DNA of 64,000 bases from a virus (lineage: Duplodnaviria; Caudoviricetes). Shown here one piece after another: positions 3,507 through 17,957 of this stretch. Under the pieces are notes generated by a model. The model was not told the origin of the DNA, searched no databases, and worked only from the letters and a program-made list of their open reading frames with translations. Within the stretch, counting starts at the first letter, position 1. The number at the start of each line of letters is the position of its first letter. Position numbers and translations under genes: made by a program. The stretch lies in IMG/VR virus record IMGVR_UViG_3300033066_002255. One strand, written 5' to 3'.

Positions 3507-3580
3507 GCCAGTAACACGTGCTATAAGCAAGTTTGCCGCAGGCGCAACACAAACCTGCTCATAGCACGTGTAAGTTTAAA
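3507..3580 (+). repeat. attC-like site E (terminal; its R' box continues into guaC sequence)
   Basis: gccagtAAC-ACGTGCTATAAGCAAGTTTG...CAAACCTGCTCATAGCACGT-gtaa-GTTtaaa; 18/20 stem. Confidence 0.75.
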
Positions 3581-4411
3581 TCCTTTTTTGTGAAGCCAAG
3601 CAGCAAATTTTGATTTTGGATTTATCTTGATATATTTAAATAATCTTGTTTCTCCGCAAGATTCAAGGCTTTTATTAAGCATAGAACCTACCATAACATA
3701 ATCTGCACCAAGAGCAATTGCTTTTATTATATCTGAATAGTTTTTCATTCCTCCATCTGCAATAATAAGTGGCTTATTATCTTGAAGTATTAATGACTTA
3801 TGATAACAATCTCGTATTAAAGATGCCATAGGATATCCCACACCTGTTTGTTGTGTAGTAAGACAACCATTTCCATTGCCTATCCCAACTCTAACAGCAT
3901 CCACTCCAGCCTTCGCTAATTCAACATATGTATTTGGATGCGCTACATTTCCTGCCATTATAAAAAGCTTATCACCATATTTATTTTTTGCCTCTTTTAT
4001 AGCTGTAGTCATCTTATGCATATGACCATTAGCCATATCAATAAGAACATAATCTCTATTTTTCGGTGGAGCAATCCCTTCTCGTGTACTTATACCAGGA
4101 GAAAAGAAAACTGTTCCATCTATATAGGTCTTAATAAATTCATCAAGAGATAATGAAGAGAAGGTCTTAAATGCACCTGAACGAACATAATATGATGCTC
4201 TTGGAAAACAAATATTTATTTTGTTATTCCAAAAATCTTTCATATTGTAAGGGTCTACAACAGTATCCATTGGTGCTGTAAATATTGGTAACATACCATT
4301 TTCATCAAAAGGATTAACCTGTGTACGTGAACTAATTTGTGTTTGTACTGCTGGCTGTATTAATATATCATTAAAATCAAATTTTGTTATTTTCTCTTTA
4401 TCGAATCCCAT
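3521..4411 (-). pseudogene. guaC: GMP reductase/IMPDH-family protein, C-terminally truncated by the cassette array
   Basis: APMDTV, AGNV, RVGIGNGNGCLT, IIADGG and GADYVMVGS are present. The expected (F/Y)RGMS flap and final helix are missing, and the last ~17 aa are read from attC site E. Confidence 0.8.
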
Positions 4412-6128: not shown

Positions 6129-6640
6129 TTTTTACTTAATGTTCTGAAAAACATTTTATAAATATGTTTTTCGTCTGGTTCTATCTCTATCTCATCTTTT
6201 ATATTCCAGTCAGGCAAATTAATAAAAGTATCGCCTTCAACATCTGCATCTATTAATGTGTGATGAATAGTGTTAACATAACCTTTATCAATTGATTCTT
6301 GCAATACAGAAGCTCCACCTATAATATAAACAGAACTATCAGTCTCAGTTTCTTCATCGCAAGATAATATGAAGTCAAGACATTTTTCTAATGTTTCAAA
6401 TTTTAAAACACTAGGATTTGGAATTGATTCTGGGTTGCTAGTTAAAACACAATTAATTCTATTAGGCAAAGGTCTTCCTATTGACTCATATGTTTTTCTT
6501 CCCATAATTATTATGGGATTATTTCCACTTGAGGTTATTTCTTTAAAGCGCTTTAAATCTTTTGGAAGAGACCATGGTAATGTATTATTTATTCCAATAC
6601 AATTATTTTTTGAGCTGGCTATAACTATTGAAGTTTTCAT
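6125..6640 (-). CDS. folA: Dihydrofolate reductase
   Basis: IGINNTLPW..P.DL..FK, IMGRKTYESIGRPLPNR, IIGG, GDT. Confidence 0.95.
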   Translation of the reverse strand: MKTSIVIASSKNNCIGINNTLPWSLPKDLKRFKEITSSGNNPIIIMGRKTYESIGRPLPNRINCVLTSNPESIPNPSVLKFETLEKCLDFILSCDEETETDSSVYIIGGASVLQESIDKGYVNTIHHTLIDADVEGDTFINLPDWNIKDEIEIEPDEKHIYKMFFRTLSKN

Positions 6641-7248
6641 TATTTTACTTCTTCTGTTTTTTCAGGTTCTTTTAAAAGATTTAAAATTTCTTCACTAATT
6701 ATTTCTTTTGTTTTTGAAGCATCTATTGTTTCTAAACCTCTATTACCTGCAAATAGATAACCAGTTTTAAAATAATTTATAACTGGAATAGTTTGAGCTT
6801 TATAAGTATTAATTCTTGTTTCTACAACTTCTTCTGCGTCATCAGCCCTATTTTCCACAAGAGCTCTTGCTTTAATTCTTTCTTTAATAATCTCATTAGT
6901 TGTATCTAATAAAATAATTTTATTTAATGGAGTTTTTCTGCTATTAAGAAATTCGTCAAGAATTTTAGCTTGGTCTACAGTTCTTGGAAATCCATCAAAT
7001 ATAAAACCATTTGCTTTAGGATTATCAATCACATTTTGTTTTACCATTTGAATAACAATTTCATCTGGCAAGTATTTGCCTTTATCAATTAATTGAGTAG
7101 CAAGCTTACCAATTTTGGTATCTTTTTTTTGCTCTTCTCTAATTAAATCTCCAGTAGATAAATGTATTAACCCTAATTGCTCTGCAATTTTTTTTGCTTG
7201 AGTACCTTTTCCCGAACCAGGAGGTCCCATAAGAACTATGTTTATCAT
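6640..7248 (-). CDS. adk: Adenylate kinase (short LID)
   Basis: GPPGSGKGTQ, STGDLIR, FDGFPRT, RADD. Confidence 0.95.
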   Translation of the reverse strand: MINIVLMGPPGSGKGTQAKKIAEQLGLIHLSTGDLIREEQKKDTKIGKLATQLIDKGKYLPDEIVIQMVKQNVIDNPKANGFIFDGFPRTVDQAKILDEFLNSRKTPLNKIILLDTTNEIIKERIKARALVENRADDAEEVVETRINTYKAQTIPVINYFKTGYLFAGNRGLETIDASKTKEIISEEILNLLKEPEKTEEVK

Positions 7249-8779: not shown

Positions 8780-8853
8780 TTTATTAATGCTATATTAATA
8801 AATAGAGATAAATCTTAAATTTATGTTAAGTTTTTTAAATTTATATAATTTAA

Positions 8854-9416: not shown

Positions 9417-9683
9417 ATGTCAGAAATTAAAAAAAAAGTTGATTTTATTATTGCTTGGTATAACAATGAAAAGTCCAAGTTTAGTTTTGCTAACCAAATT
9501 ATATTAGCCAAGACCTGGATAGATATTTGTACAAAAAAAGAAGAATATGAAATGGCATCAGCTCTTACAAAAGAAAGAGATAAGGTAGTTAGAGAATATC
9601 TTAAAAAGAAAAGAGAAAATCGTTCTTGGCAGGAACGATTAAAGTATTTTTTAATAAAATTAAAAAGAAGATTAATAAAATAA
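9417..9683 (+). CDS. Small protein with UVR-like motif
   Basis: EEYEMASAL..ERD; followed by a terminator. Confidence 0.55.
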   Translation: MSEIKKKVDFIIAWYNNEKSKFSFANQIILAKTWIDICTKKEEYEMASALTKERDKVVREYLKKKRENRSWQERLKYFLIKLKRRLIK

Positions 9684-9713
9684 AAAAGCCCCAAAAAAAA
9701 GGGGCTTTTTTTT
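9682..9713. terminator. Bidirectional intrinsic terminator
   Basis: AAAAAAGCCCC-AAAAAAAA-GGGGCTTTTTTT between convergent genes. Confidence 0.85.
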
Positions 9714-10581
9714 ATCTTAAATTTGATAAATCACAAACAGGTGGCATTTGCATTTTATGTTCATTAGCTCTATGACGACTCCAATAAATTTTTAAAATTT
9801 TCATTTGTCTATCAGATAATAAATCAGGAAATTTAAATGGACCGCTTCCTAAGGCCTCTTCGACGTCAAAAAAGCTAAATTTGTCAGTATAATCCATAGC
9901 CCATTCTAACTCAGGATATGTTGCTCCAATTTGGTCTTCATCAGTACGACCATCAGTCCATAAGCCATCTGTAGGCTTAGCATCTAAAATTTCTTGGATA
10001 ACTCCCATTTCTTTTGCTAGAGCATATACTTCTGTTTTTGTTAATTCTCCAATTGGAGATAAATCAACACCTCCATCTCCAAATTTAGTAAAAAATCCAA
10101 TACCATAATCTTCAACTTTATTTCCAGTTCCACAAACTAATAATTTATGTGCTCCAGCAACTGCATATAAAGTAACCATACGCATTCTTGAACGAGTGTT
10201 AGCAGAAGCTAAGAATATTTGGTCTTCTGATAAACCTTTAAAAGCTCCAGAATTAGTTAAAGCTTCAATTTCTTTATCATAAGATTCAGTTAAATCAATA
10301 TCTAAAGATTTAACATTTGGAAAATTAGCTTTCAACCATTCAATGTGCTTTGAGCCTCGGTCAGCTTGGTCTGCAGCTTGATGAATTGACATTTTAATAA
10401 CAGTAAGAGGCAACCCAGTTAATGCGCATAATGTAGAGCAAACTGCAGAATCAATTCCTCCAGACACTCCAATTACATATCCATTCATATTTGCTCCAGA
10501 AGCATATGCAGAAAGCCAATTTGAAATTTGGTCTTTTACTTCGCTAAAATTTAAAGTTTTATTTTTAGAAATTGTTTTCAT
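9712..10581 (-). CDS. nadE: NH3-dependent NAD+ synthetase
   Basis: GVSGGIDSAV, NTRSRMRM, GTGNKVED, GFFTKFGDG, PTDGLW...DEDQIG. Confidence 0.95.
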   Translation of the reverse strand: MKTISKNKTLNFSEVKDQISNWLSAYASGANMNGYVIGVSGGIDSAVCSTLCALTGLPLTVIKMSIHQAADQADRGSKHIEWLKANFPNVKSLDIDLTESYDKEIEALTNSGAFKGLSEDQIFLASANTRSRMRMVTLYAVAGAHKLLVCGTGNKVEDYGIGFFTKFGDGGVDLSPIGELTKTEVYALAKEMGVIQEILDAKPTDGLWTDGRTDEDQIGATYPELEWAMDYTDKFSFFDVEEALGSGPFKFPDLLSDRQMKILKIYWSRHRANEHKMQMPPVCDLSNLR

Positions 10582-10598
10582 AACTTTTTATTTATTTA

Positions 10599-10624
10599 TA
10601 CGCATTTTACTTATTTAAGTTTCA
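10599..10624 (-). promoter_or_regulatory. ECF-sigma-type promoter TGAAAC-N16-CGTA upstream of nadE
   Basis: TGAAAC TTAAATAAGTAAAATG CGTA; one of four copies with an exact 16-nt spacer. Confidence 0.75.
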
Positions 10625-10625
10625 T

Positions 10626-11225
10626 TTACTTATATAAATTATATTCATCTATATATTTTCTAACTTGAGTAGGCATGAAATGAGTTGTGCTTTTATTATT
10701 TTTAATTTGATTTCTTAAAAAAGTTGAAGAAATCTCAAGAGAAGGTACTCCGTGCAAAAACTCAACTTTACCAATCATTTCATCTGGGATATAATTAGTT
10801 GTTGTATTTCTTGGATAGACAAGGAAATTTGTCAATTCAATTACCTCTTTTCCTCCGTGCCAATTTGGTATATCAACAAATACATCCGTACCACAAATTA
10901 AATAAAATTCAAACTCTGGATGCTTTTCTTTTAATTTTTCAAGTGTAAGATAAGTATAAGAAGGTCCTTCCATTCCAAACTCAGTTGTATCAACTGCCAT
11001 TCTTGAATTATATGATATTGCATTTAAAACCATTTGAAGTCTATGTTCAGCTGGAGCAAGTATTCCTAAACTCATTTTATATGGACTATTGGGAGAAATA
11101 ACAAACCATACCACATCTACAGCTCCAGAGTCTAAAGCCATTTCACCCATAGCTAAATGGCCTGTGTGAATTGGATTAAATGAGCCAAATAATAATCCTA
11201 TTTTAGGTTTTGAGTTATTGTCCAT
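10626..11225 (-). CDS. nadD: Nicotinate-nucleotide adenylyltransferase
   Basis: FGSFNPIHTGH, SYTYLTL, GTD..W, ISSTFLR. Confidence 0.93.
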   Translation of the reverse strand: MDNNSKPKIGLLFGSFNPIHTGHLAMGEMALDSGAVDVVWFVISPNSPYKMSLGILAPAEHRLQMVLNAISYNSRMAVDTTEFGMEGPSYTYLTLEKLKEKHPEFEFYLICGTDVFVDIPNWHGGKEVIELTNFLVYPRNTTTNYIPDEMIGKVEFLHGVPSLEISSTFLRNQIKNNKSTTHFMPTQVRKYIDEYNLYK

Positions 11226-11799
11226 TTTTCTTGATTAATGCTGATGCTATAATAGTTTTAGAATCTTTAATAACATTTGTTTTTACCTCATTAAGAAATT
11301 CATCTACATCCTTTTCAATAATATCAATATTTTCATGTTCACCTTGAACACCACCTCCAGCATTAGGGTCTTTATCGGAATTTTTAACAACTGCTAAAAA
11401 GATAAAAATCTTTTCTGTAGAATAACCTGGAGAAGCATATATTTCAAATGGCTTTGTTAAATGCTCTTCAGTTATAACATAACCAACTTCTTCGTGTAAT
11501 TCTCTAATTGCAGCGTGTTGAGGAGTTTCTCCATCATCTATTTTTCCTGCAACAACTTCTAAAATATCAACTGGATATTCTAAAGCTACTGGATATCTAA
11601 ATTGCCTTACTAATGTAATTTTTTGAGTATCCTCATTAAATACAAGTACTGCAACAGCATTTGGCCTAGATAATTTAGAACGATAATAAATAGATTCTGC
11701 GCCATCTTCGGCAGTTTCTTTTACTGTAAGTTGGTCTACTTTAAAGTAGCCATCAAATATTCTTTCTTCTTTTAGAAATTCTGTTTTTTTGTTTGACAT
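11215..11799 (-). CDS. nudF: Nudix hydrolase, ADP-ribose pyrophosphatase-like
   Basis: Nudix box GKIDDGETPQHAAIRELHEEVG; RQFRYP; SPG; GEHE.I. Confidence 0.85.
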   Translation of the reverse strand: MSNKKTEFLKEERIFDGYFKVDQLTVKETAEDGAESIYYRSKLSRPNAVAVLVFNEDTQKITLVRQFRYPVALEYPVDILEVVAGKIDDGETPQHAAIRELHEEVGYVITEEHLTKPFEIYASPGYSTEKIFIFLAVVKNSDKDPNAGGGVQGEHENIDIIEKDVDEFLNEVKTNVIKDSKTIIASALIKKNGQ

Positions 11800-11812
11800 G
11801 TTGTTCTTGTTT

Positions 11813-12202
11813 TTATTTTTTTAAATATTTTTGTCTAATTTCTAAATCAATTGGTCGAGGTTCATTTTCCATGGAAATTCTAACGAAAACAACTCTTACA
11901 CTGCATACTTCTAATTCTTTTTCTTTATAAACATCATATCTTCTAGCTGATAGTTTTAGAGTTATAGAAGTCGTTCCAATTGTTTCTACTTCTCCGTATA
12001 TAATTACATCGTGATTTTCTTTGACTGGTGTATGGAATTCAATTCCATCCATTTTTACAGTAACCATTTTCTTAGTCTTGCAAATTCTCGTTGCCATTAT
12101 AGCTCCAGCTTCATCAAGCCAAGATAACATTTTGCCTCCAAAAAGATTTCCATGAACTCCAAGGTCAGATGCCTTACAAAGATGTCGTGTTATTACTTCC
12201 AT
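11813..12202 (-). CDS. HotDog-fold acyl-CoA thioesterase (YciA-like)
   Basis: HGNLFGGKMLSWLDEAG, VTV..D.I.F..PV, G.TS; TAATG overlap with pncB. Confidence 0.88.
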   Translation of the reverse strand: MEVITRHLCKASDLGVHGNLFGGKMLSWLDEAGAIMATRICKTKKMVTVKMDGIEFHTPVKENHDVIIYGEVETIGTTSITLKLSARRYDVYKEKELEVCSVRVVFVRISMENEPRPIDLEIRQKYLKK

Positions 12203-13440
12203 TATATTACAGTTTCTTTTACAATTTCTTTTATGCCCAATGTATCTTTACACAATTGAACCTCTTTAGATTTACCTGTATTTTTTCCTTTATCATCACT
12301 TAACTTAACTGTATCAACCCATTCATCGCTTCCTGGAATTGCTTGAGCAGACGTTAATTTAATGACTATATTTAATGGTTTAACTCCAACATCATTAGAA
12401 AAATTTGTACCAATACCAAAAGCTGCTTTGATTCCTTCTCCTTTTGTATTGCAATGTTCTTGTATTCTCCAGGCTTCTTCTATGTTTAAGTTATTAGAAA
12501 ATACACATGTTTTTGTTGAAGGATTAATACCCATTTTTTTGTAATGATTTACAAATTTATCAACCCATTCAGTTGGTTCTCCTGAATCATGACGAGGACC
12601 ATCAAATAATTTAGAATGTTTTCTATCAAATGATTTTAAGAAAACATCTGTTGTATATGTATCTGTCAATGCAGTACCAAGGTCTCCTTGATAAACATCA
12701 ACCCAATGTTCAAGAGCTTTTATATTAGCCATTTTATAACCATATCTTGCAGCCATAAACATAAACCATTCATGAGCATGTGTTCCAATAGGAGTAAGGT
12801 CAAGCAAATGTGCAATATGAACATTAGAAGTGCCTACAAAGAATTTATCACTTCCAAACATGTTTTTCATGTCAGTACAAACTTCTAATTGGTTATCGAA
12901 AGAGTAACGTCTACGAGTTCCGAAGTCAGTGACTTTCATATTATGCTGATGAAAGAATTGCGCTTTTTTGTTATTATTATTCAAACGAGTTTGTCTATCA
13001 TTTGGTTTTTGTTGAGTTTCTATAAAATACAACTCAGAAATAAGTGCCATTAAAGGAACCTCCCAAAGTATTGTTCTATACCAAGGGCCTTCAATATTAA
13101 CAATTAAATTACCCTCATCAGTTAAAATAACTCCAACTTCTGATGGGTCAAATTGGTATCCTGCTAAAAAATCTAAATAAACATCATCAACAAATCTACC
13201 ACACTTTAATTTTAAGAAGAATTTTTCAGAATCTGTTAATTTTAATTTAGACATTTTTTCAATTTCTTGTCTTAATTTTTTATCAAATCCCTTTGGAAAT
13301 ATTGTATCAGCTCTGTTAAAAAATTGAGACTTCACGTATGCTCTTGGAAATAGTTTGCAAACAGCATTTTGCATTGTAAATTTGTAAAGGTCATTATCTA
13401 AAATACTTTTGATAATTCCTGTTTGATTTTCTGTAGTCAT
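12202..13440 (-). CDS. pncB: Nicotinate phosphoribosyltransferase
   Basis: SILDNDLYKFTMQ, WEVPLMALISE, DFGTRRR, GTSN, GTHAHEW, RHDSG, FGIGT, KLSDDKGK. Confidence 0.93.
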   Translation of the reverse strand: MTTENQTGIIKSILDNDLYKFTMQNAVCKLFPRAYVKSQFFNRADTIFPKGFDKKLRQEIEKMSKLKLTDSEKFFLKLKCGRFVDDVYLDFLAGYQFDPSEVGVILTDEGNLIVNIEGPWYRTILWEVPLMALISELYFIETQQKPNDRQTRLNNNNKKAQFFHQHNMKVTDFGTRRRYSFDNQLEVCTDMKNMFGSDKFFVGTSNVHIAHLLDLTPIGTHAHEWFMFMAARYGYKMANIKALEHWVDVYQGDLGTALTDTYTTDVFLKSFDRKHSKLFDGPRHDSGEPTEWVDKFVNHYKKMGINPSTKTCVFSNNLNIEEAWRIQEHCNTKGEGIKAAFGIGTNFSNDVGVKPLNIVIKLTSAQAIPGSDEWVDTVKLSDDKGKNTGKSKEVQLCKDTLGIKEIVKETVI

Positions 13441-13464
13441 AATTTAAGTTTATTCACTCTTTTG

Positions 13465-13490
13465 TACGAATAAAAATTTAAAAGGTTTCT
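13465..13490 (-). promoter_or_regulatory. ECF-sigma-type promoter AGAAAC-N16-CGTA upstream of the pncB operon
   Basis: AGAAAC CTTTTAAATTTTTATT CGTA. Confidence 0.75.
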
Positions 13491-13525
13491 TTTTTAAGAA
13501 ATACAACACAAAGCTGCAAATAAAA

Positions 13526-13551
13526 TGTAACTTTACCAAATTTTTTTCGTA
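13526..13551 (+). promoter_or_regulatory. ECF-sigma-type promoter TGTAAC-N16-CGTA upstream of the cREC-cca pair
   Basis: TGTAAC TTTACCAAATTTTTTT CGTA, 9 nt before ATG 13561. Confidence 0.7.
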
Positions 13552-13560
13552 TAATTGAAT

Positions 13561-13890
13561 ATGAAATTTAAAATATTTTTAGATGATATAAGAATACCTA
13601 CTGATATTTATCCAAAAACGGATAATAATGAGTGGATAATTGTACGTAATCTAACGGAATTTAAATCAATCATTGAAGCTCATGGAGTACCTGAATATAT
13701 TTCCTTTGATAATGATTTAGGGGAAACTTTAGAAGAAGGAAAAGATGCAGCTAAATGGCTAGTTTTTGAAAAGTGGTTAGATATATCTGAGATGGATTTT
13801 ATAGTTCATTCTGCCAATTCAAGTGGCGTTAGAGAATATATAACAGATTTGTTAAACAATTGGAAAAAAGAATTAATTAAAAATGAATAA
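13561..13890 (+). CDS. Cyclic-phosphate-processing receiver-domain (cREC) protein
   Basis: IFLDDIR.P, W..VRN, ISFDNDLG, G.DAAKWL, VHSAN. Confidence 0.8.
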   Translation: MKFKIFLDDIRIPTDIYPKTDNNEWIIVRNLTEFKSIIEAHGVPEYISFDNDLGETLEEGKDAAKWLVFEKWLDISEMDFIVHSANSSGVREYITDLLNNWKKELIKNE

Positions 13891-15130
13891 AGCAAGAAAA
13901 ATATTAATGGGAAATGAAATGGAGAATGAAATAGGAATAAGAGTGAATTTTGATATGAAAATTCCTGCAGAAATTATTATGCTTAAAGACCTTTTTAAAG
14001 CCAAAGGCGCTCAATTATTTGTTGTAGGAGGAGCTGTTAGAGATTCTTTATTAGGAAAAGCTCCAAAAGATTTTGACTTAGCAACAAATGCTTTACCAGA
14101 TGAAATCGTTTCTATATTTACAGGAAACTTTGAAATCAAGGAAACATTTTTAAACAAAGATAAAGAAGTAGAAGGATATATACTAAAAAATGGCTTGAGA
14201 TTAAACTTTCAAGGTAAACAATTTGGTATTATTGCTGTGTACAATCTTAAGGATTTGCCTACTGGTGTCGAAATCGCTACATTCAGGAAAGACCTTTCTG
14301 GAGGTAGAAGACCAGATGCTGTTGAGTTTACAAGTATCTTTGAAGACGTGAAAAGACGTGACTTAACAATCAATGCTCTTTTTTATGATTTAGACACAAG
14401 AGAAGTTGTTGATTTAGTTGGAGGTATAGATGATTTGAGAAAAGGAATCATAAGAACTGTAGGTTCTGCTAAAGAAAGATTTACAGAAGATAGATTGAGA
14501 ATCTTGAGAGCTATTAGATTTGCAGGAAGGTTTGGAAGTGAACTTCACGAAGATATAGATGCTTTTTTATTGATTGATTCAAAACTGGATGGAGTTTCTG
14601 GAGAGCGAATCAGAGATGAATTCATGAGTGGTATTAAAAATGCCAAGAAAACTTCTGAGTATTTAAAAATGATTGAAAAATATGATTTGTTTAAATATAT
14701 TTTTCCAGGTCTTATTATTAATAAGAATTTCATAGATAGCAATGATACCTTATTGGTTATAACTACTCTTCTTAAAAATAATTGCTTGAAAGATGATAAC
14801 TGTCTTGAAATATTGGCTGTTAAATTAAATACAGCAAAATACTCAAAGAATTTTATTAAATCAATTTCTTTCTTAATTTCAATGCTTAAATTATCTGAAG
14901 ATAATGCTTATGTGCTTAAAAAAGCTCAAAGAAATTCATTTGTAGAAGATAAACAACTTTCTACATTTTTGAAGATGAATTCAATGGATTCAAAATTGAT
15001 TAAGTCATTTTTGAAGTTTCAGTTAACAATTAGCTCTAAGGAATTAATTGCCTCAGGATTCAAAGAAAGTGCGTTAGGGGAAGAAATAAAAAGGTTGGAA
15101 ACTTTGAGCTTTACTACCCTATTAAAATAA
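13883..15130 (+). CDS. cca: Class II CCA-adding tRNA nucleotidyltransferase / poly(A) polymerase family, no HD domain
   Basis: VGGAVRD..LG..PKDFDLAT, RRDLTINAL, EDRLRILRAIRF, SGERI. Confidence 0.9.
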   Translation: MNKARKILMGNEMENEIGIRVNFDMKIPAEIIMLKDLFKAKGAQLFVVGGAVRDSLLGKAPKDFDLATNALPDEIVSIFTGNFEIKETFLNKDKEVEGYILKNGLRLNFQGKQFGIIAVYNLKDLPTGVEIATFRKDLSGGRRPDAVEFTSIFEDVKRRDLTINALFYDLDTREVVDLVGGIDDLRKGIIRTVGSAKERFTEDRLRILRAIRFAGRFGSELHEDIDAFLLIDSKLDGVSGERIRDEFMSGIKNAKKTSEYLKMIEKYDLFKYIFPGLIINKNFIDSNDTLLVITTLLKNNCLKDDNCLEILAVKLNTAKYSKNFIKSISFLISMLKLSEDNAYVLKKAQRNSFVEDKQLSTFLKMNSMDSKLIKSFLKFQLTISSKELIASGFKESALGEEIKRLETLSFTTLLK

Positions 15131-15721: not shown

Positions 15722-15747
15722 TACGTTTTTTTATAAAAAAGGTTTCA
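15722..15747 (-). promoter_or_regulatory. ECF-sigma-type promoter TGAAAC-N16-CGTA
   Basis: TGAAAC CTTTTTTATAAAAAAA CGTA. Confidence 0.7.
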
Positions 15748-16232: not shown

Positions 16233-16263
16233 AAAAGCCAGATGAATGTCTGGCTTTTTTTTT
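16233..16263 (+). terminator. Intrinsic terminator
   Basis: AAAAGCCAGA-TGAATG-TCTGGCTTTTTTTTT. Confidence 0.8.
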
Positions 16264-16277
16264 GCATATTTATATTC

Positions 16278-17957
16278 ATGAGTTATACACCATATCATAT
16301 TAAAAAAAGACTTAAAGAAATTATTTCTCCTTCAGGGGTTGATGTATCTGATGTATCTAAATTAAAACCAGGTTTGAGTGGTAAAATCTGGCAAAAAGAT
16401 GGTAAGATAAAACCAGAAGTAAGAAATAAAATGATAATGATTGCCAAAAAATTCTATGAATATTTAGGTTTAGATTATCCTATTGTTGATATTTATTTTA
16501 CTGGTAGTTTAGCTAATTATAATTGGACAAATCATAGCGATGCTGATATTCATATTATTTTTGATATGAATGGAGAAGAAGAAGATGCTCTTTTATCTGA
16601 GTTTATTTTTGCTAAAAAAGATTTGTGGGCAGAAAAACATGATATTAAATTATATGGTTTTCCTGTGGAGCTATTTGCGAAAAATTTAGAGGAGGAACAT
16701 GAATCAAAAGCAATTTATAGTCTAATTAAAAACGATTGGTTAAAAAAACCTTCCAAAAAAAATATCTCTATAGATTCTGAATCTATAAAAATAAAGGCTG
16801 CAGATTTAATGAATAAAATAGATGATATTGAAAAAATATCAGATGAAACAGAAAAATTAAATAAAGCTGAAAAATTAAAAGATAAAATAAAAAACATGAG
16901 AGGCGCTGCGCTTGAGCAAGGTGGAGAGTATTCTACAGAAAATCTTGTGTTTAAAACATTAAGAAATAATGGTTATCTTGATAAATTAAATAACATTAAA
17001 AGGGATACATTTGATACGCAAATGAGCTTAAAAGAATCTAGTAGTAAAGACCATAAATATGAATATGGTTGCTTAATGCTTGGAGTAAATATTCCTAATT
17101 GGAAAAAGATAATAGGCCAAATCAAACCAGAAGATTTATATGATAAGCCTGGCTTTGGAAATGAAAATGAGCCGCATGTAACAGCCTTATTTGGGTTTCA
17201 CGACAATGAAGTTTCGTTAGATGAAATAAAAAAATTCACAAAGAAAATAGTAAATAGGCCTTTGCCTATTAAATTAACTGGAATTAGTTTATTTGAAAAT
17301 AAAGATATGCCATATGATGTAATAAAATTTGATGTGAAGTCAAATGAATTAACAAGATTAAACAAATGGCTAAGAAGATTACCTCATACAAGTTCATTTA
17401 AAGATTATCATCCTCACATGACAATTGCTTATGTAAAAAAAGGTGAAGGACAAAAATATGTAAAAGAATTTAATGAGCCACTTAATGTTATAGGCGATAA
17501 AATCATTTATTCTCATCCAGATAAAAGCAAAGATATATGGAGTGTAATAAAGAGAAATACACTAAAAATTCAAAAGGATATTCCTGGAATGACAGATGAA
17601 AAAATAAAAATCTTAAAAGACTTTGTAAATTTCACTTGTTGTAAATTAAATATAGAAGAACCAGTTACAGTTGTTATAAGAAATGGCAGAGATGAATATA
17701 TATCTACCACAGCTTCTTATTTGCCAAATGAAAATGAAAATCACATTAGAGCTGGCGGAAGAGCTATAGTAGATATATGTAGGTCAATAGGACATGAACT
17801 TACTCATAATAGACAAAGAGAACTTGGTATATTTAATCCAGGAGATAATGTGCAAAATATAGGAGGTAAAATCGAAGATGAGGCAAATTCAATCGCTGGA
17901 ATTTTAATAAAAGATTTTACTCATAATTATGGCTATGATGGTATTTATGAGATTTAA
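16278..17957 (+). CDS. Three-domain fusion: Pol-beta-type nucleotidyltransferase + 2H phosphoesterase (T4 57B/Acb1-like) + HExxH metallopeptidase-like domain
   Basis: GSLANYNW...SDADIH; EPHVTALFG and YHPHMTIAY; GHELTH...EDEAN. Start moved to ATG 16278, downstream of the terminator and TATTTATA. Confidence 0.82.
   Translation: MSYTPYHIKKRLKEIISPSGVDVSDVSKLKPGLSGKIWQKDGKIKPEVRNKMIMIAKKFYEYLGLDYPIVDIYFTGSLANYNWTNHSDADIHIIFDMNGEEEDALLSEFIFAKKDLWAEKHDIKLYGFPVELFAKNLEEEHESKAIYSLIKNDWLKKPSKKNISIDSESIKIKAADLMNKIDDIEKISDETEKLNKAEKLKDKIKNMRGAALEQGGEYSTENLVFKTLRNNGYLDKLNNIKRDTFDTQMSLKESSSKDHKYEYGCLMLGVNIPNWKKIIGQIKPEDLYDKPGFGNENEPHVTALFGFHDNEVSLDEIKKFTKKIVNRPLPIKLTGISLFENKDMPYDVIKFDVKSNELTRLNKWLRRLPHTSSFKDYHPHMTIAYVKKGEGQKYVKEFNEPLNVIGDKIIYSHPDKSKDIWSVIKRNTLKIQKDIPGMTDEKIKILKDFVNFTCCKLNIEEPVTVVIRNGRDEYISTTASYLPNENENHIRAGGRAIVDICRSIGHELTHNRQRELGIFNPGDNVQNIGGKIEDEANSIAGILIKDFTHNYGYDGIYEI

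Follow-up and report, generated by a model that had tools for sequence, protein, structure and literature searches.

A conserved five-gene operon in an uncultured T4-like phage, predicted to raise NAD+ synthesis from nicotinate

A 64,000-nucleotide stretch of DNA filed in IMG/VR as a virus (Duplodnaviria; Caudoviricetes; record IMGVR_UViG_3300033066_002255), referred to here in its whole length as the window, contains five adjacent genes for NAD+ synthesis by the deamidated (Preiss-Handler) route. We consider it likely that these genes constitute a functional, vertically inherited operon of an uncultured T4-like phage, which raises NAD+ synthesis in the infected cell. The five open reading frames (ORFs) share one orientation, running on the minus strand from position 13440 to 9712, and the whole operon fits within 3.7 kb. 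Its features are as follows.

13465-13489, minus strand: promoter-like motif GAAAC-N16-CGTA of the extracytoplasmic function (ECF) type, SigW class, 25 nt upstream of the pncB start
12202-13440, minus strand: pncB, nicotinate phosphoribosyltransferase (NAPRTase), 412 aa (PF04095 and PF17767; NF003704; TIGR01514)
11813-12202, minus strand: hotdog-fold (4HBT) acyl-CoA thioesterase of the YciA/ACOT7 type, 129 aa (PF03061; phrog_18230)
11215-11799, minus strand: Nudix hydrolase of the YffH/AdpP (ADP-ribose / GDP-mannose pyrophosphatase) family, 194 aa (TIGR00052; Nudix box)
10626-11225, minus strand: nadD, nicotinate-nucleotide adenylyltransferase, 199 aa (TIGR00482; HTGH and ISSTFLR motifs)
10599-10623, minus strand: second ECF-type promoter-like motif GAAAC-N16-CGTA, inside the 44-nt nadD-nadE gap
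9712-10581, minus strand: nadE, single-domain ammonia-dependent NAD+ synthetase, 289 aa (PF02540; TIGR00552; phrog_11189)
9682-9711, no strand assigned: bidirectional intrinsic terminator after nadE, with an 11-bp stem, five G-C pairs and a T run on both strands

Adjacent genes are tightly spaced: pncB and the thioesterase gene overlap by 1 nt and the Nudix gene and nadD by 11 nt, with gaps of 13 and 44 nt at the remaining junctions. The initial annotation of the window, made from the sequence alone, had described a contiguous, co-oriented pncB-thioesterase-Nudix-nadD-nadE set with overlaps and a terminator of its own. The coordinates proved exact, the families scored above their cut-offs, and a strong bidirectional terminator was indeed found after nadE.

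To assign the genes, we searched about 60 ORFs of the window against protein families, Pfam among them. PncB belongs to the type II NAPRTase family, with scores of 443.4 bits for NF003704 (cut-off 379) and 412.7 bits for TIGR01514 (cut-off 269.55). Its best solved relative is chain 2im5_A, deposited as a nicotinate phosphoribosyltransferase (E = 1e-105); solved NAPRTases gave E-values from 1e-105 to 7e-40, and alignment with these relatives shows that the phage protein retains the GTHAHEW motif. NadD scored 153.4 bits for TIGR00482 (cut-off 112.45) and has HTGH at residue 20 and ISSTFLR at residue 165. Its best solved relative, 1kam_A, was deposited as a nicotinate-nucleotide adenylyltransferase (E = 5e-30). 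NadM and NadR models fall far under their cut-offs for this protein, the NadR models reaching 21-25 bits where 201-341 are called for. NadE scored 165 bits for TIGR00552 (cut-off 63.65), matches PF02540 and the phage family phrog_11189 (E = 4e-74), and carries an SGGIDS P-loop at residue 40. It consists of one domain and has no glutaminase, which indicates an enzyme of the ammonia type. These family assignments bear out the reaction order given in the initial annotation, by which nicotinate and phosphoribosyl pyrophosphate (PRPP) would yield nicotinate mononucleotide (NaMN), then nicotinate adenine dinucleotide (NaAD) and finally NAD+.

Two other contigs contain this five-gene set in identical order. 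One, CAYWRU010000016.1 (L087), is a 54-kb contig filed in a 3.7-Mb 'uncultured bacterium' metagenome-assembled genome (MAG), and its five proteins are 78–87% identical to those of the window. The other (L004) is a 153-kb IMG/VR contig, for which the corresponding identities are 44–69%; its CheckV completeness of 52% suggests a genome of ∼290 kb. All five genes are intact in the three phages. The wider gene order is also common to them, with thyA, a gene for a nucleotidyltransferase-2H (NTase-2H) fusion, a CCA-adding enzyme gene and a cREC gene on one side of the cluster, and small ORFs, def, adk and the DHFR gene on the other. At least 13 kb of L087 are collinear with the window, with protein identities of roughly 56–89%, and L087 is evidently a phage contig in spite of its place in a bacterial MAG. 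A fourth, 1.8-kb contig (L088) contains pncB and the thioesterase gene. Relative to L087, dN/dS is 0.085 for pncB, 0.10 for the thioesterase gene, 0.14 for the Nudix gene, 0.10 for nadD and 0.12 for nadE. These values (0.085–0.14) lie in the range of adk and def, although with dS near 1 they are rough. The data suggest that all five genes are under purifying selection.

Several genes identify the window as phage DNA. A gp6-like baseplate wedge protein matches phrog_219 (E = 8e-19) and, over its full length, the baseplate wedge protein of Flavobacterium phage immuto (E = 2e-54), and it also matches proteins of huge uncultured phages. Just upstream is the gene for a weakly matching gp25-like protein, and the window further encodes tail proteins, an SbcC-like nuclease subunit and a phage-type helicase. 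Megablast of 24 kb of the window against the phage collection returned no match, and an exact 35-nt pattern taken from the window was likewise without a match in IMG/VR. The closest relatives of PncB in IMG/VR are on viral contigs, while its nearest cellular relatives, at 55–59% identity, come from Bacteroidota, and the T4-like phage probably has a host in that phylum.

Might the contig be bacterial instead, or the operon a host operon captured whole? The Bacteroidota affinity of PncB could be read in this way, as could the filing of L087, the closest relative, in a bacterial MAG. Against such an origin stand the baseplate, tail and homing-type genes of the window, the status of L004 as a viral contig in IMG/VR, and the synteny of L087 itself with phage. 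Moreover, the five-gene set was found in no clearly bacterial locus. We regard a non-phage origin as extremely unlikely, and the initial annotation's premise that the contig is viral stands, given its baseplate and tail genes and its relatives in IMG/VR.

The distribution of the individual genes speaks to how the cluster arose. When related pncB genes were located in genomes, 76 of 80 loci lacked all of the other four genes within 6 kb. Hence, the cluster is not a captured host operon, and this candidate was ruled out. Among related IMG/VR loci (L017-L086, mostly marine), 69 of 70 have nadE with neither pncB nor nadD nearby. With pncB alone in genomes and NadE usually alone in phages, the cluster looks to have been put together in the phage lineage out of genes with different origins. 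Different arrangements are seen in other contigs: nadD-pncB-nadE followed by a PncA-like gene (L009), pncB...nadE-nadD (L010), pncB...nadE-Nudix (L006-L008) and pncB-Nudix...nadE-adk (L019). Adjacent pncB and nadE genes, encoding proteins 55% and 56% identical to those of the phage, also occur at L096:6001-8157 and L100:358-2514, which are assigned to Burkholderiales and Neisseriales MAG bins but may themselves be unrecognized phage contigs.

Among solved structures, NadE is closest to 3FIU (130 bits, compared to 90 bits for the runner-up), which is the Francisella nicotinamide mononucleotide (NMN) synthetase (PMC12143786). This match brings up an alternative order of reactions, in which NadE acts as in Francisella to convert NaMN to NMN, the adenylyltransferase then uses NMN, and NaAD is not an intermediate. 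The positions of Francisella Tyr27 and Gln133 correspond to Ala30 and Gly143 in the phage enzyme. The canonical NAD synthetases 3dpi, 2pz8 and 1ee1 have Ala or Thr at the first position and Gly at the second, in agreement with the phage residues and not with those of Francisella. These two positions reportedly govern specificity. NadE from L087 and L004 likewise has a small residue and Gly (Ser/Gly in both), and the partner adenylyltransferase is of the NadD type, not the NadM type. The residues at the two positions and the NadD-type partner make the canonical order, NaMN to NaAD to NAD+, the more likely one. On the same residues, an NMN synthetase role for this NadE was rejected as unlikely, and we give the alternative order as a whole very little credence. 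A separate observation comes from a comparison of related NadE copies, drawn from IMG/VR loci and a few other sources, of which five have Gln at the equivalent of Francisella Gln133; judging from this residue, some lone phage NadEs might make NMN.

The Nudix protein scored 84.8 bits for the YffH/AdpP model TIGR00052 (cut-off 79.55). It has the Nudix box GX5EX7REUXEEXGU at residues 85-107, followed by SPGYS, and the box, SPGYS and GGGV are invariant across four phage copies. Among solved structures, it is closest to NudK and several ADP-ribose pyrophosphatases, with similar E-values (1e-22 to 3e-20), and it falls short of the equivalog models for NudK (87 bits, cut-off 234) and NudF (53 bits, cut-off 248). 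The most likely activity of this protein, as predicted from its family and motifs, is cleavage of ADP-ribose to AMP and ribose-5-phosphate. A Nudix gene adjoins pncB or nadE in two further phage lineages with different arrangements (L019; L006-L008). Its presence in several independent arrangements indicates that Nudix recurs with pncB and nadE genes. PADLOC returned a weak, generic Nudix match and otherwise no match to a defense system.

The thioesterase scored 60.7 bits for PF03061 (cut-off 20.6; E = 1.7e-16), matches phrog_18230 (E = 5e-23), and aligns with the structures of ACOT7 and YciA (E = 2e-16 to 1e-10), although its score for the YciA equivalog model, 47 bits, is below the cut-off of 162. 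Asp30, at the start of the central helix, and an FGG motif are invariant among its relatives. We take Asp30 to be the catalytic residue. Because the Asp and FGG of YciA/ACOT enzymes are kept, the protein has the appearance of an active acyl-CoA thioesterase. It is grouped with NAD genes only in the lineage of the window, L087, L004 and L088. A 50%-identical homologue in Flavobacterium phage immuto adjoins thyA, and the 16 kb examined there contain no NAD gene. The idea that the thioesterase is an obligatory part of an NAD module was set aside as unlikely, given this homologue and the pncB-Nudix pair of L019, which has no thioesterase. It is probably a conserved passenger specific to the lineage. 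A pattern scan of IMG/VR confirmed no thioesterase relatives even though L004 has one; such a scan catches near-identical peptides only. In Xanthomonas phage XacN1 (L013, 296618-299979), a thioesterase homologue lies downstream of a gene annotated as poly(ADP-ribose) polymerase, at a distance of ∼1.7 kb, a possible link of the family to NAD/ADP-ribose genes.

The initial annotation had credited the operon with its own promoters, and this claim holds in part. Matches to sigma-70-type promoters were no more frequent in the window than expected by chance (22 found, 26 expected from shuffled sequence), and we dropped them as evidence. Inspection by eye revealed no exact Bacteroidota TTTG-N19-21-TAnnTTTG site upstream of pncB. 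What we did find upstream of pncB, on aligning the window with its two relatives, is a conserved block, GAAAC(C/T)TTT...CGTA(T/C)AA. This block corresponds to the SigW-class ECF consensus, TGAAAC-N16-CGTA. The window contains three exact copies of GAAAC-N16-CGTA, compared to 0.12 expected, and none of 100 shuffled sequences reached three. One copy lies 25 nt upstream of pncB, one in the nadD-nadE gap, and one upstream of the small-gene/sRNA region near orf149 (∼15.7 kb). The motif is exact upstream of pncB in L004 and has one mismatch there in L087. In the nadD-nadE gap, L087 has an exact copy (8815-8839), whereas L004 has none, nadD and nadE abutting in that phage. Thus, an ECF-type motif that is enriched and conserved in position precedes both pncB and nadE, and it is the sigma-70 sites that do not stand. 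The third copy, at 15722-15746 on the minus strand, has a homologous site in L087 at 2491-2515 on the plus strand.

The region around the pncB promoter differs among the three phages in another respect. A homing-endonuclease-like ORF of the GIY-YIG type (228–240 aa) is inserted between cREC and pncB in L087 (5205-5927, minus strand) and in L004 (9261-9947, plus strand), in opposite orientations. In the window, this ORF is absent and the cREC-pncB gap (13441-13554) is merely 114 nt. The ORF is, in other words, a presence/absence polymorphism at the promoter region of the operon.

Where would the substrates come from? As noted in the initial annotation, the window has neither a nicotinamidase nor a PRPP synthetase. 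None of the isochorismatase/PncA, PRPP synthetase, NAMPT, NadR or PnuC families was detected among the about 60 ORFs, and an isochorismatase search found nothing in the 153-kb L004 contig, which is 52% complete, or in the 3.7-Mb MAG in which L087 is filed. Seven of 21 relatives of that MAG gave an isochorismatase match; the taxonomy of these relatives is not given, and the count is uninformative on a host PncA. The lack of both enzymes in the window and the L004 contig implies that the input of the operon depends on the host. It also implies that nicotinamide, the product of SIR2/TIR NADases, can enter the route only through a host nicotinamidase. Other lineages differ in this regard. A PncA-like isochorismatase gene directly follows nadD-pncB-nadE in the L009 contig (G002:C1:94246-94785), and another, LR756501.1:423202-423666, lies ∼5 kb beyond nadE and 6–7 kb from pncB. 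In both cases, the PncA-like gene and the cluster would together make up a full set for converting nicotinamide to NAD+.

We propose the following scheme. Transcription would start at the ECF-type promoter before pncB, and again at the second one before nadE, and would stop at the terminator after nadE. The host would supply nicotinate, through its own PncA or by uptake, along with PRPP and ATP. PncB would then form NaMN from nicotinate and PRPP in an ATP-driven reaction, NadD would adenylylate NaMN to NaAD, and ammonia-type NadE would amidate NaAD to NAD+. Meanwhile, the Nudix enzyme would split ADP-ribose into AMP and ribose-5-phosphate, clearing a product of NAD+ consumption and feeding the nucleotide and PRPP pools. 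Host Prs could turn the ribose-5-phosphate into PRPP, a recycling step that is plausible given a host Prs. The sequence analysis itself establishes the gene identities, the intact motifs, the conservation, the synteny and the motif enrichment, whereas we infer what the enzymes do, which substrates they prefer, when the genes are expressed and whether the phage benefits. Dependence on host nicotinate, PRPP and ATP casts the operon as a booster of NAD+ supply.

Several points count against this scheme. The thioesterase is not known to take part in NAD+ metabolism, and its immuto homologue is found away from any NAD gene. The top solved match of the Nudix protein, NudK, is a GDP-mannose hydrolase, an activity that the family includes; a nucleotide-sugar substrate is thus a real alternative. 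The assignment of GAAAC-N16-CGTA as a promoter is a match in sequence, and the window yielded no sigma factor. Finally, there is the absence of nicotinamidase and PRPP synthetase, described above.

The purpose of the operon could be general NAD(P) supply, relief from NAD+-depleting immunity, or both. For the first of these, the operon would be part of the auxiliary metabolism of the phage, with no link to immunity. A larger NAD(P) pool would serve NAD(P)-dependent nucleotide synthesis by the phage (DHFR, the GMP reductase/IMPDH-like protein, the thymidylate cycle) as well as phage enzymes that consume NAD. The cluster lies within a block containing thyA, the genes for DHFR and the IMPDH/GMP-reductase-like protein, adk and def, and marine T4-like phages commonly carry a NadE of this family on its own (the 69 of 70 loci noted earlier). 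Li et al. (2024; PMC11662467) tie such clusters to NAD-consuming phage enzymes, and phage PA5oct induces the Preiss-Handler operon of its host during ordinary infection (PMC7318152). On the other hand, Pfam searches revealed no NAD-consuming enzyme (LigA, Sir2, ART, macro) in the window, and a Nudix of the ADP-ribose type is accounted for less well by general supply than by counter-defense. We put the chances of this explanation at slightly less than even.

The alternative is that the operon is dedicated to counter-defense, constituting a fourth, deamidated NAD+ reconstitution pathway. Together with host PncA and Prs, it would rebuild NAD+ from both products of SIR2/TIR cleavage and so rescue the phage. 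Nicotinamide would be routed via nicotinate through PncB, NadD and NadE, and ADP-ribose would be routed via Nudix to ribose-5-phosphate and on to PRPP. Other kinds of NAD+ salvage genes, those of the reconstitution pathways NARP1–3, do defeat NAD+-depleting defenses. In addition, the Nudix gene of the operon is conserved, and further phage lineages also combine a Nudix gene with pncB or nadE. The two contigs just described (L009; LR756501) have a PncA-like gene near the cluster, and next to the operon is a module resembling RNA-end repair (cREC, CCA-adding enzyme, NTase-2H), a typical kind of counter-defense cargo. Several observations are at odds with this explanation. There is no PncA in the window or in the contigs of its relatives, so entry of nicotinamide needs the host; three ATP-consuming steps plus PRPP synthesis would have to run in an energy-starved cell; the other neighbors are ordinary nucleotide-metabolism genes; and the literature searched contained no experimental work on a Preiss-Handler cluster from any phage. 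We consider a dedicated counter-defense role rather doubtful. Similarly tentative is the notion of a counter-defense operon run from a separate, ECF-type promoter class, in which the conserved thioesterase acts in the management of cofactor pools. General supply and counter-defense are not mutually exclusive. The operon could soften NAD+-depleting immunity, but only where the host deamidates nicotinamide.

Some of the neighboring genes mentioned above merit description. The RNA-end repair-like module occupies 13555-15130 and 16242-17957 on the plus strand, is divergent from pncB, and is conserved in L087 and L004. It comprises a protein with a cREC_REC cyclic-phosphate-processing domain (E = 3e-19), an enzyme of the CCA-adding/poly(A) polymerase family, and a 571-aa fusion of a nucleotidyltransferase and a 2H (LigT-like) phosphoesterase, which also has a weak match to Acb1. 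At 3521-4411 on the minus strand, adjoining a DNA methylase gene, is the gene for the IMPDH/GMP-reductase-like protein. This 296-aa protein scores far below all equivalog cut-offs and may be a trimmed or divergent enzyme. Nucleotide-metabolism genes near the operon thus comprise thyA, the DHFR gene, this IMPDH-like gene and adk, which the initial annotation had correctly placed nearby:

6640-7248, minus strand: adk, adenylate kinase (PF00406; NF001381, 202 bits, cut-off 187)

The adk gene is located in a separate downstream unit, def-adk-DHFR, which is syntenic in L087 and L004. A functional link between adk and the NAD operon would be a matter of inference.

NAD+ is central to the conflict between bacterial immunity and phages, and experiments have demonstrated three routes by which phages rebuild it. 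Large phages commonly encode the nicotinate route, which is known there from sequence. Of 668 gut jumbo phages, 174 encode complete NAD+ pathways, and a 'Preiss handler' cluster of pncB, nadD and nadE was predicted from sequence in Kuafu_71 and Kuafu_19 (Li et al. 2024, Microbiome; PMC11662467). Neither a Nudix nor a thioesterase is mentioned in the main text of their study. Iyer et al. (2022) limit their coverage of phages to the nicotinamide route, and the names PncB, NadD and NadE do not occur in the NARP preprint (Osterman et al., bioRxiv 10.1101/2024.02.11.579819), consistent with the initial annotation's statement that NARP1 and NARP2 need no NadE. That annotation had gone further and proposed a third route of NAD reconstitution. 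This proposal does not hold, as pncB-nadD-nadE clusters were already reported (PMC11662467) and NARP3 is already defined as PnuC plus NadR (PMC13464706, 2026). Nor is reconstitution the right term for the genes at hand: the route starts at nicotinate, which is not an NADase product, and without a nicotinamidase it would give no NAD+ from nicotinamide unaided. The idea of countering NAD+ depletion is not new either, because a 2026 study of Xanthomonas phage X1 already raises such a role as a possibility for phage pncB/nadM/nadD/nadE (PMC13384950). Experimental tests of a phage Preiss-Handler cluster were not found in the literature searched. The window operon offers a compact, well-conserved and clonable example for this purpose, and the lack of a nicotinamidase leads to a clean prediction, namely that any rescue depends on host PncA or added nicotinate.

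The closest known system is the cluster of the NAD-jumbo phages (Li et al. 2024). Both are sequence predictions in large phages with a Bacteroidota-type host range, and in both the three Preiss-Handler genes are clustered. The window adds Nudix and thioesterase genes between pncB and nadD, and an ECF-type motif before pncB and nadE. NAD-jumbo phages have genomes >200 kb, whereas the window phage is known from a 64-kb stretch.

Compared to NARP2 (Nampt and Nmnat), the common element is a phage phosphoribosyltransferase and adenylyltransferase that make NAD+. NARP2 stays amidated, from nicotinamide through NMN to NAD+, and has no NadE, whereas the window has a PncB-type NAPRTase, a NadD-type adenylyltransferase and an amidation step. 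NadV/NatV of Vibrio phage KVP40 is an example of NARP2, and NatV carries a Nudix domain. Counter-defense has been shown by experiment for NARP2, while the window operon is known from its genes. NARP1 (Adps and Namat) starts from ADPR-PP and nicotinamide, and the window encodes neither a PRPS-like Adps nor Namat among its about 60 ORFs. NARP3 (PnuC and NadR) starts from imported nicotinamide riboside, and the window has neither gene. The presumed outcome shared with NARP1 and NARP3 is more NAD+ in the infected cell.

Bacterial Preiss-Handler salvage (pncA-pncB-nadD-nadE) employs the same three enzymes in the same reaction order; in P. aeruginosa, the operon is pncA-pncB1-nadE, and it is this host operon that phage PA5oct upregulates (PMC7318152). 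The window differs in having no pncA. The Bacteroidota genomes sampled have pncB alone, which argues that the clustered arrangement is the phage's own. NadE of the window belongs to the same family (phrog_11189) as the lone NadE of marine T4-like phages such as P-TIM68, S-SSM7 and Pelagibacter phage HTVC008M, at ∼45–53% identity, but the window gene is clustered with both pncB and nadD. Collectively, the details worth recording are the lack of a detectable nicotinamidase, the ECF-type promoter motifs, and the ADP-ribose-type Nudix and thioesterase genes inside the operon. In other respects, the window operon is a well-conserved further example of the phage clusters already reported, and it embodies no new principle.

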